A DNA stretch of 64,000 nucleotides from Eledone cirrhosa (Eukaryota): NCBI GenBank assembly GCA_964016885.1, contig CAXHJY010001325.1, positions 6,373-70,372 of the forward strand, given 5' to 3'. How positions within the stretch are numbered: position 1 is the stretch's first letter; each line of letters opens with the position of its first letter. The notes below the pieces were generated by a model that saw only the letters and a list, made by a program, of their open reading frames with translations, made no database searches and was not told where the DNA came from. This document shows, piece by piece, positions 6,612-32,410 of this stretch. Position numbers and translations under genes: made by a program.

Positions 6612-7885
6612 TGTAGGAGGTGAGTTTTATTGTACAATAAAGCAATGCAGATATCGGATAAGAACCACTCTACAGTTTGTGGGACTGGAGTATACATAAT
6701 ATATAAGAACAAAAGATGGTTAAAGGAGTTCCATGTATTTTATTATGCGCATTTCAAAAACAAATATCATCATGCAATAATATTTGTGTTTTCATCAGAT
6801 AAAACAGGAGGACATGATATGAAGGCTAAAAAACACTTGTGGATAGTTTAGTTTTAAATCAACATATGGGAAGTAGTTTTAGATTGATGTGTGATCTTGG
6901 AAAAAATATTTTATTTAGGGGGGGGGGGGGTGAAAAAAAGAGGAGGAGATGAGAGTGAAGGTGGAGAGGGAGGAGTATAGTGAGGAAGGATGAGATAGGA
7001 GGAGAGATGGGTGATAGAGAGAGAGAGATAGTTTTTATAACTGAGAAAGATATATTGTTTTACATAGAGAGGTTGAAAACCGTTGGAAGATAATGAATAA
7101 ATTAAAAGAATTTGAAAATTAACGAAGAGAAAAAGAGAAAAATATGTGCGAAGAAAGAGAAGGAGTTAATATGTACTGAGAATAATGAGTTAGATGATAG
7201 GGAGAAAAGAATAATGAATTGCGGATGAATATTCTAACGTCAAAAAAAATTGTATATGTTTACGAAGGATTTTTATAAGGTGATATAGAGTAAGAATGTG
7301 TTGTATTATGTAATAATTGATTCTATGTTAGGCAAGAGTGAGAAAAGGTACAGATTAGGGGTTAGATATTAGAAGAGAAGAAAAGGAAGTGATAAATATG
7401 GGTATTATAGAAATTTGAAAATTAACAAAGAAAATTAACAAAGAGAAAAATAATGTAAAGTTAAGGTTTGTATATTGAAGGATTTGAGAAAAATAATGTA
7501 AAGTTAAGGTTTGTATATTGAAGGATTTGATAATATGTGCGAAGAAAAAGAAAATGTTAATATGTATTGAGAATAATGAGTTAGATGATAGAGAGAAAAG
7601 AATAATGAATTGAGGATGAATAATCTAGCGTAAAAAAAAATGTATATGTTTACAAAGGATTTTACAAGGTGATATAGAGTAAGAGTAATGAGTAAGCAAG
7701 TATTATAGAATGTATAATAACCTTTGAAATAAGGTAGAAAGATGGTTATATTTTTAAAAGAAGTGTATATATATGTGCCTTTGAGAAAAAGATTCTAAAT
7801 TGATAAAGAATTAAATATTAGCTAAATTCCATAAAAGATTTCACAAAGTATACAGCTAATATTCAATTGTTTATTAATTTAGAAT
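6612..7885 (-). mobile_element. Penelope-like 3' end (family HH-B) with long AT-rich UTR
   Basis: Terminus GTAGGAGGTGAG recurs at 12110 and 32410; hammerhead at 6738-6804; internal duplications 7141-7295 / 7532-7684; right boundary approximate. Confidence 0.55.
6738..6804 (-). ncRNA. Minimal type I hammerhead (HH-B)
   Basis: TTTTAT-CTGATGA-stem II-GAAA-TGCGCA-TA-ATAAAA; palindromic stem III ATGCGCAT. Confidence 0.8.
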
Positions 7886-9819: not shown

Positions 9820-9842
9820 TACATATATATATATATACATAT

Positions 9843-9964
9843 GTAGATAAATCTACCAAGAGTATACCAATTATAACACATATATGCCCTAGAAACGATC
9901 GTTAAATAGTGAACTTTTTTTGTTTAATATAAGGAATTGTTTGTTCATTATTTGTTTAATATTT

Positions 9965-9968
<4 letters not shown>
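9843..9968. mobile_element. Mini HH-A insertion: 21-bp terminus joined to an inverted internal segment
   Basis: Matches 993-1013, then the opposite strand with the 3' half of the hammerhead (GAAACGATCGTT). Confidence 0.7.
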
Positions 9969-10019
<51 letters not shown>

Positions 10020-11947: not shown

Positions 11948-12109
11948 TACATATGTATATACATACATACATATATATATATACATATATATATACACAT
12001 ATATATATACATACATACATATATATATATACATATATATATACATACATACATATATATATACATACATACATATATATATATACATATATATATACAT
12101 ACATACATA

Positions 12110-12342
12110 TGTAGGAGGTGAGTTTTATTGTAGTACAATAAAGCAATGCAGATATCGGATAAGAAGCACTCTACAGTTTGTAGGACTGGAGTATACTCCA
12201 CAAGTGTTTTTTAGCCTTCATATCACGTTCTCCTGTTTTATCTGATGAAAACACAAATATTATTGCATGATGATGTTTGTTTTTGAAATGCGCATAATAA
12301 AATACATGGAACTCCTTTAACCATCTTTTGATCTTATATTAC
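12110..12342. mobile_element. HH-B terminal repeat with internal inversion
   Basis: 12110-12196 colinear with 6612-6695; 12197-12342 is the adjacent segment inverted. Confidence 0.8.
12236..12302 (+). ncRNA. Minimal type I hammerhead (HH-B)
   Basis: CTGATGA 12242-12248, GAAA 12285-12288, TGCGCA-TA, stem I TTTTAT/ATAAAA. Confidence 0.8.
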
Positions 12343-13898: not shown

Positions 13899-16820
13899 GG
13901 GTGGGAAATAACAATGGGCTGCAGGTAGTAGATATGTTGGTAGATAAGGTAATCTCTGTAGATGGAGTAAACGCGAGAATAATTAAACTCAGACTAGTCC
14001 TAAATAGAACAATGGCTACAATTATATCTACATAGACACCCCAATTTGGGTTGTCAGACGAACTGAAAAATAGGTTTTACAAATCCTTAATGCACACTAC
14101 TGCACAAACGAATGACAGTGACTTCCTAATCATCATGAGGGATTTTAATGGACACATTGGGAAACACTGTGATGGCTTCTACAGAGTCCATGGAGGCTAC
14201 AGGTTTGGCACAAGAAATGAAGAAGGTTTCAGGTTCCTAGAATTCTGCGACACCAATGACCTATCGATAATTAACACAAACTTCTAAAAACACAACAACC
14301 ACCTGATCACCTATAGATCTGGTGAACATGCTAGTTAGATAGATTTTATCCTTACCAGGGGACAAGATAGAATGACAGGGGTAAACATGAAATCCTTCCC
14401 TGGTCAGAAATGCACCTCCCATCATAACCTAGTAGTTAGCAATTTCATTGTCTGAGCTAGATGAACTTGGAGACTGAGGGCAACCTGGAGGAGAAGAATA
14501 TGGAAGTTGAAAGAGCCCTCAGCCAGTAACAAATTTAGTGATATTTTGCTCAACACCTATAACAGTAAAGAAGAACAGATAGAGAAGAGTATTGGGATAC
14601 AGAAGAGTATTGGGATTTCCTGAAAGATAATCAACTGAAGGTGACAGACGAGATCTGTGGATAGAGCAGGGATACACAGAGAAGGAGAATGACTTGGTAG
14701 ATGAGACAATTAAGGCCAAGAGACGGGCATGGAAAAATAGAAGAATGGGGGAAACAGGGTACACTACATAGAGGCCAGGAGGGAAGCTATGTGATCAGTA
14801 TACTTTGCAAGGAGGAAAGCATGTTTTGCAGTGTGAAGACAAGAAACAGGAGGTGTTTGGGATTGTGAGGAAGTGTATTAGGGAAAATTGTGATATCATT
14901 GGAGAGAAGTATGTCTGTGATGATAAAGATGCACTTGCTCTCACAGACGTGGGAAAGAAAATAGCATGGAAGAGCCATTATTAAAGATTACTGGATGAGG
15001 AGAATGCATGGGAGAAGGAGAGTTTACTCCAGGTGTATCCAACAGAGGGCCCAGCAGTGTAGTAAGGCAATTGAGGATATGAAAACTGGGAAAGCAGCCA
15101 AACCATTGGGGATAGTTGCTGAGATGCTGAAACCAACCGGGTCAGTAGGTCACACCTTCACTACAAGTATTGTAAACCAAGTAATACTAGATGGTGTCAT
15201 ACCAAATGATTGGTGCAGCAGCATCATTGTCAATGGCTACAAGGGTAAAGGAGATGCACTAGATAGAGGAAATTATAGAGGCATCAAGTTGATGGACCAG
15301 GTCATGAAAGTGACAGTCATAGCACAGCTGATTAGGGATCAGGTTAATCTACATGAGATGCAGTTCGGATATGTGCCAGGTAAAAGCCCCACAGATGTTC
15401 TTTTCCTGGTGAAGCAGCTACAGGAGAAATACATAGCTAAAAGTAAGCGACTCTACCTGGCATTTGTTGATTTGGAGAGGCTTTTGACAGTCCCCCCGGG
15501 TCATAATACGGTGGGCTCTTAGAAAACTAGGAGTAGATGAGTGGCTTGTGAAGGTTGTACAAGCCATGTATAGGGAAGCAGTCAGCAAAGTTAGGATTAA
15601 CAACTATAACGAAGAATTTAGTGTGTAGGTTGGCATCCACCAGGGCTCTGTTCTTAGCCCTCTCCTGTTTATTATCATACTGAAAGCCTAGAAATAAAGG
15701 GTCTTAAAGTCAACCTGACAAAAATTAAGGTCCTAGTAAGTAGAAATAAAAACAGACCCCTGATCGCTTCAGGAAAATGCCCATTCTCAGTGTGTAAGAA
15801 AAGTGTTGGTAGAAATTCCATCCTCTGTCCCAAATGCAAACTATAGATACACAAGAGATGTAGTTGGTTTTCAGGTAGTCTAGCTAAGAATGCAGGTTTT
15901 ACATGTAGCCATTGCACAGACACAGTAAACAGCAAACGACTACAGGAAAAAGCGCTATCAAATTCTGGGAAGGTTCGGTAGAAACAGTAGACAACTTCTG
16001 CTACCTGGGTGACCAAATTAACAGCAGAGGTGGGTGTTCCTAAAATACAGTAGCCAGAGTGAGAACAGGATGGAAGAAGTTCAGGGAACTATTACCACTG
16101 CTAGCTACAAAAGGCTTTTCCCTCAAAATGAGAGGCAGATTTTATGATGCGTGCATATGAACAACAATGTTGCATGGCAGTGAGACCTGAGTACTGCATG
16201 CAGAAGACTTGCAAAGATTGCAAAGAAATGAAGCTAACAAGCTCCTATGGATGTGTAATAGTAATATACATGAACAGTAAATCATAAACAGAGAGAAACT
16301 AGGCATAAAAGGAATCAGATGCAGTGTGCAAGAGAGGAGATTATGTTGGTATGGACATGAGATGTATATGAAGGATGACAATGACATAAAAAGATGCAGA
16401 GCGCTGAAAATGAAGCTGTGGAATGGGAAGACCCAGGAAGACTTGGGATGAAGTGATAAAAGCTGACCTTGCCCAACTGCACCTCTGAAAAGCAATGACA
16501 TAAGACCAAGATCTCTGGCTTTACGCAGTAATACAGAAAACCCACCTTACCATGATCACAGGCGGAAGCATAAATATGTAGCATATACCACTTTCACCTC
16601 CACCCCACCCCACTCTTCTATACACCTCCCAATATAACAGGCTGAAGCATACATCTACTGTGCTCTACCCAACCCCCTTCTGTTACCTCCCACGTTCTAA
16701 CACTGCCCTGCACACACACCCAAATACCCACCTCCCCAATCCACCACACACTTCTCCCACCAAAACCACCAGCCCACACTGTAAAGTGGTTATAATGGCG
16801 ATACGACAAAAAGTGCCCAT
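13899..16820 (+). mobile_element. Old, decayed near-full-length RTE LINE (APE endonuclease plus RT)
   Basis: DFNGHIG..RNEEG..LEFC..NTNF (APE), NYRGIKL..QFG..FVDLE (RT); many stops and frameshifts. Confidence 0.88.
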
Positions 16821-17037
16821 TCCTGGGTGCTTTTTGCCGTGGCACCTCCACGACCACTTTGCAGTGGAATGATAGGGACCCCAGTCCTATCATCTCATTT
16901 CTACAGCTGAGTAAACTGGAGCAATGTGAAATAAAGTGTCTTGCTCAAGGAAACAACATATCACTCGGTCCGAGAATTGAACTCACAACCTTTCAATTGC
17001 AAGCCCAATGCTCTAACCACTAAGTCATGTGCCTTCA
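16821..17037 (-). mobile_element. tRNA-headed SINE, partial
   Basis: A/B boxes; matches the copies at 38515 and 57864. Confidence 0.8.
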
Positions 17038-17449
17038 CAAAAGTTACGTTATGCATCGGCCAAGATATATATATATTTAGAATAAGTCGTTTTCAAATAC
17101 GAAAACAGATGAAGGTTTGTGAAGAAGTTATTACAGCTCAAAATATGAGATTCATTACAGTAAACTCTTCAGAAGACTACATACAAGATTTAATTGTATG
17201 AACTCCTATGTTTCAAATGCTTAAGTAAACTCATAGAGCAAATATTACATTGAAAATAAGACCAAATACTGTTAATTATATCATATTTTAATTAATGCAT
17301 GATTCTTCCATCTCACAGGATATATAATTAATTATTAGTTATGATCGAATTATTGGATTCATCAGAATTGGGATTCATAAAAAAAAATACTAGAAAGATT
17401 ATTACCCCTACGAATCATTTCGTATATGTATTTACATTACCAGTAAAAT

Positions 17450-18071: not shown

Positions 18072-18652
18072 ATCATCATCATCATCATCATCATCATCAA
18101 CGTTTAACGTCCGTGTTCCACGCTTGCATGGGTTTGGACGGGGGTAGTCCCACTTGAGGCAAGAGTGATTGTCTTGCTCGCATAGGACTGTCTGGCAGGT
18201 TTTCTACAGTTGGATGCCCTTCCTAACACCAACCACATTTACAGTGTGGGTCTGGGAGGTTTTTACCGTGTTGCCTACACGGCCACATTACAGCGTGGAC
18301 TGTGTGTTTTTTTGTCGTGACACCTACACGATCTCATTTGTTTCGGCCTCGATGGCGCGGCACCAACATAACTTTACATAGAACGGGGTGGTGTGGATCG
18401 GGTGGGGGTGGTGGTGGTGGGACGGGGTGTATTTTGTTAGAGATGCCTACTGGCTGGAGTAGGTTTTACTATATATTTAGGTAAGGCGGGTCTTCTCTGT
18501 TACTGAGTACCGCCAAAGGTCTCGGTCCAGTGACATTGTCTTGGAGAGGTGTAAGTGTGTGATGTCGGAGTTTATCAGCTCGTCCCAGGTTTTTCTAGGT
18601 CTGCCTATTCCGTGACTACCGTCTATCTTTATTGCCCTGCACTTTGTTATAC
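18072..18652 (-). mobile_element. 5'-truncated RTE-a LINE
   Basis: Near-identical to 76-645. Confidence 0.9.
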
Positions 18653-18661
18653 ATATATATG

Positions 18662-18714
<53 letters not shown>

Positions 18715-18747
18715 TATATATATATACACACATATATATATATATAT

Positions 18748-18784
<37 letters not shown>

Positions 18785-18821
18785 GAAACACACAGATACA
18801 TGCGGACACACACATATATAC

Positions 18822-19385
18822 ATGAATGCATCCGCACCCAACTGTGAGTTAAGGGTGCCAACTTCACCGATGTTGCTCAATGAATGACTGGGACAGACCA
18901 ATTCAGTTTGAACCAGACTGAACCAGTATCAGAGTTAAAATACATTATGAAGAGAAATATATTAATAACTCCCTCTGGTCGAGCAATCTTTGAAGTGTGG
19001 GGACAACTGGAAAGCTTCCATTACTCATACTTCTCGCCTTCTTCACTACCTCTTCTACGGCCTCGATATGAATACCCCCTCCGCCTCCGTGGTATTTTCT
19101 TCGTGGTTATAAGAGGCTTAGCTCTGTTTCTCGACCGTTATATCGCGTGACTATCTCCCCCTCCGCCTTTTGGGATTCTTTCTCACGTCGTGTAGACGCG
19201 TTCTTGAGACTAGTAAAATGAGGTATCCTCTTGATAAGTTGGTAGACCTCGCAAGGACTCTATATCTTTGATATATTGTTTTTGTTTATGCCACGAAACT
19301 ACGTAGTCGAGGAATTTAGGAGCAGTTTAGGTATGATACATTTTATTACTAATTATATCTAAATGTTTCTTCTCTCTTCATAATG

Positions 19386-19388
<3 letters not shown>
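18822..19388. mobile_element. Non-coding ribozyme-bearing element with 16-bp inverted overlap
   Basis: ATACATTATGAAGAGA 18940-18955 inverted at 19373-19388; hammerhead inside; TA flanks. Confidence 0.5.
19226..19313 (+). ncRNA. Type I hammerhead with U3-A8 variant core (HH-E)
   Basis: TCCTC-TTGATAA-GTTGGTA...TGCCAC-GAAA-CTACGTAG-TC-GAGGA; palindromic stem III; GUC site. Confidence 0.75.
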
Positions 19389-19417
<29 letters not shown>

Positions 19418-19488
19418 TATATATATATATATATACACACATATATATATATATATATACACACATATATATATATATATATACACAC

Positions 19489-19545
<57 letters not shown>

Positions 19546-19564
19546 TATATATATATATACACAC

Positions 19565-20398
<834 letters not shown>

Positions 20399-31774: not shown

Positions 31775-31902
31775 CATATATATACATATATATATACATA
31801 TATATATATACATATATATATACATATATATAGATATATATATATACATATATATATAGATATATATATACATATATATATATACATATATATATATATA
31901 CA

Positions 31903-32410
31903 CATAATATAAGATCAAAAGATGGTTAAAGGAGTTCCATGTATTTTATTATGCGCATTTCAAAAACAAACATCATCATGCAATAATATTTGTGTTTTCA
32001 TCAGATAAAACAGGAGAACATGATATGAAGGCTAAAAAACACTTGTGGATAGTGCAGTTTTAAATCAACATATCTGCAGTTTTAAATCACATAAACTGCA
32101 CTATCCACAAGTGTTTTTTAGCCTTCATATCATGTTTTAAATCAACATATCTGCAGTTTTAAATTACATAAACTGCACTATCCACAAGTGTTTTTTAGCC
32201 TTCATATCATGTTCTCCTGTTTTATCTGATGAAAACACAAATATTATTGCATGATGATGTTTGTTTTTGAAATGCGCATAATAAAATACATGGAACTCCT
32301 TTAACCATCTTTTGATCTTATATTATGTATACTCCAGTCCTACAAACTGTAGAGTGCTTCTTATCCGATATCTGCATTGCTTTATTGTACTACAATAAAA
32401 CTCACCTCCT
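31903..32410. mobile_element. HH-B fold-back insertion with hammerheads at 31944-32010 (-) and 32220-32286 (+)
   Basis: Inverted arms around a rearranged centre; right arm runs to the family terminus. Confidence 0.85.

Follow-up and report, generated by a model that had tools for sequence, protein, structure and literature searches.

A U3-A8 hammerhead motif of Eledone cirrhosa lies in a high-copy non-coding repeat that is very probably mobilised by Penelope-type enzymes

Results and Discussion

A type I hammerhead motif in a two-armed insertion

The DNA analysed here, a stretch of 64,000 nucleotides from Eledone cirrhosa (hereafter, the window), contains a type I hammerhead motif in the forward arm of a two-armed insertion flanked by (TA)n microsatellites (Table 1). 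Stem I is formed by five Watson-Crick pairs between TCCTC (19226-19230) and GAGGA (19309-19313), and stem II, between 19238-19244 and 19289-19294, by six pairs including one U-G, with one bulge and a long hairpin distally. GAAA occupies 19295-19298, and stem III, ACTACGTAGT at 19298-19307, is a perfect 10-nt palindrome. A GUC site is present with C17 at 19308, placing the predicted cut between 19308 and 19309 and the predicted start of the 3' product at 19309. Direct reading thus confirmed the helices, the TTGATAA core, the GAAA, the palindrome, the GUC site and the cleavage position that had been given in a preliminary description of the window. The conserved hammerhead positions (U4, G5, A6 and A9; G12, A13 and A14; the A15.1-U16.1 pair; and the NUH site) all agreed with the consensus in the accessible text of PMC7151607, and positions 3 and 8 pair Watson-Crick as U3-A8. 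The view of U3-A8 as a compensated 3-8 pair therefore held, and the variant had already been described in nature: natural U3-A8 cores active in vitro were reported in 2011 (PMC3088659, accessible text), and about 1,300 U3-A8 matches are reported for Schistosoma Penelope elements (PMC4209133, accessible text). The core variant alone is already known and of modest interest.

Table 1. Features of the locus, other elements of the window and the candidate driver family.
Feature	Position	Strand	Basis or remark
Type I hammerhead, U3-A8 core	19226..19313	+	Direct reading, folding, descriptor
Core U3-U4-G5-A6-U7-A8-A9 (TTGATAA; UUGAUAA as RNA)	19231..19237	+	Direct reading and family counts
Stem II, 6 bp with one bulge, and distal hairpin	19238..19294	+	Folding, copy comparison
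Palindromic stem III (monomer, 2 bp and 6-nt loop; dimer, 10 bp)	19298..19307	+	Direct reading, folding
Forward arm, unit 1-434	18955..19388	+	Outer end at site A, inner end at the site-B boundary
Inverted arm, unit 591 back to ~419	18784..18955	-	Outer end at site B; 157-nt "tail" plus ~15 nt
(TA)n target microsatellite, left flank	18648..18783	.	
(TA)n target microsatellite, right flank	19389..19615	.	
Second hammerhead family, canonical C3-G8 core	6740-6802 (-), 12238-12300 (+), 31946-32008 (-), 32222-32284 (+)		Own palindromic stem III
411-bp fold-back, third family	19613-20158		Arms 99.8% identical (19613-20023), between (TA)n tracts
Young Neptune-type Penelope family	L113:2773-7900 (G000:C1:145868000-145877900); also L114, L118, L121, L122, L124		

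A strict descriptor of the motif, applied to both strands, gave one match in the window and a single match across 100 block-shuffled windows. The window copy carries a private C-to-T change at 19243 in the stem II region. In the monomer, the hammerhead fold was predicted at -17.5 kcal/mol, 2.8 above the minimum of -20.3, and is thus not the predicted minimum-energy structure; in the dimer, a double hammerhead via the 10-bp stem III was predicted at -53.3, compared with a dimer minimum of -54.1 (0.8 apart). The predicted fold has three helices with stem I open, and stem III would be stable only in the dimer, a design already known for Penelope-type hammerheads (PMC4209133, accessible text). The Rfam hammerhead models gave no match at the gathering score, nor at E up to 10, and the Rfam matches listed were far under the gathering score and nearly all within AT repeats. 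Those models are probably built mostly from C3-G8 cores with a short stem II.

The window holds several other elements. Copies of the second hammerhead family, which is also present in L118 and L128, run into (TA)n at either of two sites separated by about 85 nt, with the two sites on opposite arms at ~12100-12340 and 31900-32410. The fold-back at 19613-20158, one arm of which is about 135 nt longer than the other, shows that a third family has this two-armed form as well; copies of this family are also found at 980-1327, at 9830-9980 and in L120. Visual inspection also suggested a decayed LINE-like stretch at about 14000-16500, in which the endonuclease- and RT-like motifs are broken, with tRNA-like SINE copies near it (e.g., 16930-17040).

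A non-coding repeat family of about 591 nt

Searches of the 3.0-Gb animal assembly indicated that the motif belongs to a high-copy mobile element, which the preliminary description had missed. With a 231-nt query, 880 candidates were obtained, the best 40 of which scored about 100% identical, many being 591 bp apart in tandem; a 16-nt stem III pattern gave 8,062 genome matches, compared with 0 for the control. The statement that the motif matches nothing else in the window was correct, there being no second copy in the window, but does not extend to the genome. The repeat unit measures 588-597 nt (about 591) and has a G+C content of about 42%, below the 45% of the retrozyme criterion. It contains no reading frame with RT and GIY-YIG, and its longest ATG frame is 75 aa, in agreement with the earlier designation as non-coding. 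Units occur in tandem and inverted arrays within (TA)n, each tandem unit carrying its own type I hammerhead, and the subfamilies form a series in which identity falls to about 76%. The circular unit is predicted to be strongly folded (z=-5.3 against 30 shuffles). The window copy is young, differing from the reference unit by one substitution across the 434 nt of its forward arm. As it contains a single ribozyme and roughly one unit of sequence, it would not yield a circle by itself. No RNA run was among the sequencing runs listed as containing the repeat. Contigs of 620-621 bases, one each from runs X1 and X5 (31-mer graph), were considered as a sign of a closed unit and were dropped, as a tandem array or trace DNA would give the same.

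The U3-A8 core among copies and between families

All 771 copies with the exact flanks of the window copy carry U3-A8, and 3,464 U3-A8 copies compared with 0 C3-G8 copies were counted at spacers of 56-70 nt, a range that omits the subfamily with a 55-nt spacer, which is covered only by the exact-flank searches. A C3-G8 copy of the 591-nt family was thus not found by the exact-flank and 56-70-nt spacer searches, and paralogues that are mostly CUGANGA, which had been named as the outcome that would speak against the earlier reading, are not what these searches gave. It had also been argued that joint fixation of U3 and A8 suggests selection for function. In the main subfamily, position 3 was variant in 14 copies (single changes, none C3-G8) and position 8 in 14, compared with 11 for the free position 7, indicating that the fixation reflects common descent. 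Because the copies are young and descend from one founder, joint fixation is not itself evidence of selection, and its use as proof was ruled out by the position-7 control.

Conservation between subfamilies does argue for function. When the young reference unit was set against the majority sequence of 30 old copies, differences were found at 0 of 43 ribozyme positions and at 94 of 382 positions elsewhere (p=2e-5); with the motif used to find the old query left out, the ribozyme count was 0 of 26 (p=1e-3). Selection on the ribozyme is therefore seen over a longer time, between subfamilies, as judged from sequence comparison. Among 197 copies, the distal hairpin includes a pair that runs from C-G (8 copies) through U-G to U-A across subfamilies, and one locus carries a compensatory change in stem I from U-A to C-G. 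Variants shared by all units of a locus numbered 1 inside the ribozyme and 48 elsewhere, compared with 11 and 83 for single-unit variants (one-sided p=0.04), which points weakly to a depletion of shared variants inside the ribozyme. A change at position 8 is common to both members of two tandem pairs, both forward units of L161 being U3-G8, and some core variants have therefore still moved.

Two fixed ends on opposite arms

Nearly all 3' ends of the insertions coincide with one of two sites that are separated by 157 nt, unit position 434 (site A) and a point just past 591 (site B), and are followed by (TA)n, whereas the 5' ends are scattered. Both sites are short AT-like stretches, and in 14 of 70 clean junctions A stands in place of the single mismatching G of site A, which would follow from annealing of the target end at that site. 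Of 97 two-armed insertions, 86 ended at A on one arm and at B on the other (60/68 in the main set, from which one duplicate row was dropped and 2 edge rows were excluded; 14/17 in the old subfamily, with the query locus dropped; 12/12 in a later set), compared with 3 same-end cases and 8 with an end at neither site. Against free choice among the 89 with both ends at these sites, the preference for opposite ends was significant (p=2e-22). As for the same-end cases, L038 has the appearance of two insertions that differ in age and lie side by side, the arms of L161 come from different subfamilies, and L166 stands. The loci, most of them from the first part of contig C1, were picked through matches to ribozyme patterns or through similarity and are not a random sample; we see no way in which this choice could favour opposite ends.

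The inner ends were analysed in 59 two-armed insertions. A arms ended at most 3 nt from site B in 6/59, compared with 0.7 expected (p=7e-5), as if the RT had met the other primer. B arms showed no pile-up at site A (3/59 within 10 nt compared with 2.1 expected), arm lengths were uncorrelated, and both arms exceeded one unit in 13/59. There was no significant pile-up of 5' ends within 10 nt of the ribozyme cut (4/59 A arms and 0/59 B arms); 12/59 A arms lay within 20 nt of it, a count that is post hoc and subject to the locus picking. In L1 twin priming, two primers at one break use one RNA, resulting in an inverted arm, and one RT tends to stop at the other primer. The insertions described here resemble it in the inverted arm from two primers on one RNA and in the RT stop near the other primer, and they differ in that the second site is fixed, the arms extend up to several units and there is no poly(A).

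Shared variants and the RNA template

The arms diverged by 0.65% within one insertion, compared with 2.3% between insertions. Each of the 18 locus-private variants found on both arms recurred in all units that cover its site (at least 3 units for 11 of the variants), and one locus has four private variants in all of its 7-8 units over 4.5 kb. Overall, 29 variants were common to all units, 1 was partial and 101 were confined to a single unit. Furthermore, 216 of 221 units crossed the ribozyme cut site without a scar, indicating that a circle or an uncut multimer, and not a monomer that had been cut, served as template. Units of different templates were found at about five of 74 informative loci (L157, L070, L164, L212 and L161), which counts against a strict monomer circle, since a single monomer circle does not give mixtures; about half of the 55 discordant sites in the later locus set lie beside indels and look like alignment noise. 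Taken together, it is likely that the insertions represent one RNA copied from both sides of a DNA break by Penelope-type enzymes.

The main rival to a circular template is an uncut linear multimer used by the same element with the same Penelope twin priming, the hammerhead cutting rarely or serving another step, such as 5' processing or release from a host transcript. We regard this rival, including the other step for the hammerhead, as rather unlikely. It accounts for the loci with units from different templates, and arrays of at least 5 units exist as possible sources. In the accessible text of PMC11167929, hammerhead mutants left insertion by the anole enzyme unaffected, and the activity of Penelope-type hammerheads is described as low in that of PMC4209133. 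Against it stand the variants on both arms that recur in every unit (18/18) and the locus with four of them throughout 4.5 kb, and a purely linear route would not be expected to keep re-homogenising arrays.

On the ribozyme strand, variants common to all units included 9 A>G and 2 T>C, compared with 4 and 18 among single-unit variants (p=7e-4), and the common transition sites had A/G in 30 of 44 (p=4e-4). The lean towards A>G in these sequences fits A-to-I editing of the template; an RT bias is a possible alternative source. Single-unit variants favour T>C over A>G (18 compared with 4) beyond base composition.

These observations also bear on the possibility that the arrays grew at the DNA level, by unequal crossing-over, gene conversion or (TA)n fold-back repair, or are assembly artefacts, with the motif as a passenger. 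Local satellite-type amplification has been proposed in 10.64898/2026.07.22.740005 (accessible text), (TA)n is hard to assemble, and the monomer is not predicted to adopt the hammerhead as its minimum-energy fold. Nevertheless, this reading is highly improbable in view of the two fixed 3' ends on opposite arms, the random 5' ends, the strand-biased A>G, the conservation of the ribozyme and the recurrence of the pattern in subfamilies that differ greatly in age.

Candidate Penelope drivers

The candidate drivers are elements with both RT and, at the C terminus, GIY-YIG. Of 10,597 candidates, 150 were scored, and 50 GIY-YIG loci were compared with the unit. Within these 50 loci, no alignable homology between the unit and autonomous elements was found beyond low-complexity matches and one inserted copy. 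The family represented by L113 targets (TA)n and has a U3-A8 hammerhead located downstream of the reading frame. Its two ends, separated by 68 nt (the 68-nt tail), lie on opposite arms in 4/4 inversions; its proteins are about 97% identical, and L113 has an open frame of 938 residues. In a tree of 11 rows, L113, L119/L125/L128, L131 and L132 form one clade (91/100, short of starred support), and these four families are Neptune-type and have a U3-A8 core and a common 6-nt stem III palindrome, which differs from stem III of the 591-nt unit. In comparison, L116 and L120 have C3-G8 cores, and L115 and L129 degenerate cores. The tree and the cores thus indicate that families alternate between C3-G8 and U3-A8, the kind of covariation that the preliminary description had hoped for; its double change was not borne out as an event inside the 591-nt family, the swap being visible only between families. 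The suggested selection for function likewise stands on the conservation between subfamilies and draws no evidence from fixation among paralogues.

It may be that the U3-A8 Penelope clade moves the 591-nt unit. Two side observations concern these elements. In L128, L119, L125 and L131, which belong to one Penelope family, GCAA replaces GAAA together with U3-A8 in the predicted hammerheads, a further variant of the core. At L050:2810-2930, a 5'-truncated end of the retrozyme is joined to a small L113-family fold-back without a microsatellite; a template switch is not favoured there, as sequential insertion explains the junction equally well.

We also considered that the unit might be the pseudo-LTR of an autonomous Penelope family, its copies being 5'-truncated by-products and not an independent lineage. 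The hammerhead anatomy and the tail are of Penelope type, truncated two-armed copies of the L113 family look alike, and the search for a partner was shallow (50 GIY-YIG loci, 150 scored of 10,597). This explanation is nonetheless improbable, since units stand head to tail without an intervening frame, both young and old (76%-identical) subfamilies exist, and there is no coding neighbour in any locus inspected.

Comparison with known systems

In the accessible texts of PMC7229834 and 10.64898/2026.07.22.740005, metazoan non-LTR retrozymes share with the present element tandem units that are non-coding and each contain a type I hammerhead, a G+C content of about 42%, a strongly self-paired predicted circle and the co-occurrence of Penelope-like elements, by which mobilisation has been proposed. 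The link between Penelope elements and retrozymes was proposed in the former and argued in the latter. The differences are the unit of 591 nt, compared with 170-400 nt in PMC7229834 and inside the 51-972 bp of 10.64898/2026.07.22.740005; the U3-A8 core with a long bulged stem II; the lack of pLTR homology in the 50 GIY-YIG loci; and the two-armed insertions with opposite fixed ends, which those texts do not describe. The 591-nt element, known here from DNA, thus has the sequence features of a metazoan non-LTR retrozyme. It also has the traits of Penelope derivatives, namely, partial tandems, an inverted 5'-truncated arm, a tail on one end and a microsatellite target.

The ribozyme resembles, in the accessible text of PMC4209133, the hammerheads of Schistosoma Cercyon Penelope elements, with U3-A8, a 5-bp stem I, a long stem II, G10.1-C11.1 and a palindromic stem III predicted to act as a dimer. 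The present motif is distinguished by its near invariance, its 10-nt palindrome, its 57-nt stem II domain and its place in a non-coding tandem unit, whereas the Cercyon motif lies beside an RT frame. The insertions correspond to the Penelope tail systems, including PAc (PMC11167929 and PMC8557442, accessible texts), in their two fixed 3' ends, a tail often on one end only, an inverted 5'-truncated copy, a (TA)n preference, and the cutting and extension of both strands. One-end tails and two RT start sites are therefore known from those reports. The tail here is 157 nt, compared with 30-40, the ends lie in short AT-like microhomologies, and the assignment of site to arm is near-strict, whereas the start site of PAc is given without a strand difference in the accessible text of PMC11167929. 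This near-strict opposite-arm rule was not found in the accessible literature on Penelope twin priming, tails, inversion and circles; the supplements of PMC4209133, PMC7229834 and 10.64898/2026.07.22.740005 and subscription papers may hold the family or the rule.

A proposed mechanism and its significance

That the element is a hammerhead-bearing repeat mobilised by Penelope enzymes is very probable. This reading starts from what the assembled DNA displays directly, namely, the unit, its copy number, the (TA)n target, the two 3' ends, their use on opposite arms, the shared variants and the conservation of the ribozyme. As an explanation of the whole, we favour, as reasonably probable, a family of the non-LTR retrozyme type that undergoes cleavage as a dimer, circularisation and twin-primed rolling reverse transcription by a Neptune-type Penelope enzyme into (TA)n. 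In this mechanism, a tandem copy would be transcribed, and two neighbouring hammerheads, pairing through the palindrome of stem III, would cleave one another, perhaps aided by protein, yielding monomers that would be ligated into circles, some of them A-to-I edited. A Penelope RT-endonuclease, probably a dimer, would then nick both (TA)n strands, and each of the resulting 3' ends would anneal through a small number of AT bases, at site A for one end and at site B for the other. Each RT would run on, often for more than one round of the template, and the two cDNA ends would be joined with an overlap of 0-5 nt at the inverted junction. Two published results count against this explanation: in the accessible text of PMC11167929, the purified Penelope system did not need the hammerhead for insertion and its priming was not homologous, and in that of 10.64898/2026.07.22.740005, 8 of 9 Xenopus retrozyme dimers were without cleavage in vitro. 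More tentatively, and with somewhat less than even confidence, we propose that a single RT-endonuclease dimer sits on one ribozyme-made circle, with its active sites at the two fixed starts, copying from both ends of the double-strand cut.

The element matters more than the core variant. More than 8,000 copies of the motif in one genome escape Rfam and CUGANGA descriptors, which indicates the scale of what is missed. The origin of tandem and inverted Penelope insertions and of their tails and the reverse transcription of retrozyme circles are treated as open in the accessible texts of PMC8557442, PMC11167929 and PMC7229834. Since the family provides a defined RNA of short length, two start sites that have been mapped, a known target and candidate enzymes that look intact, twin priming on a circle is testable in the tube. 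If the proposed arrangement of the dimer is true, the Penelope "tail" would be the distance between the start sites of two subunits on one RNA, and the U3-A8 core would mark both a Neptune-type clade and a circular RNA that parasitises those elements.
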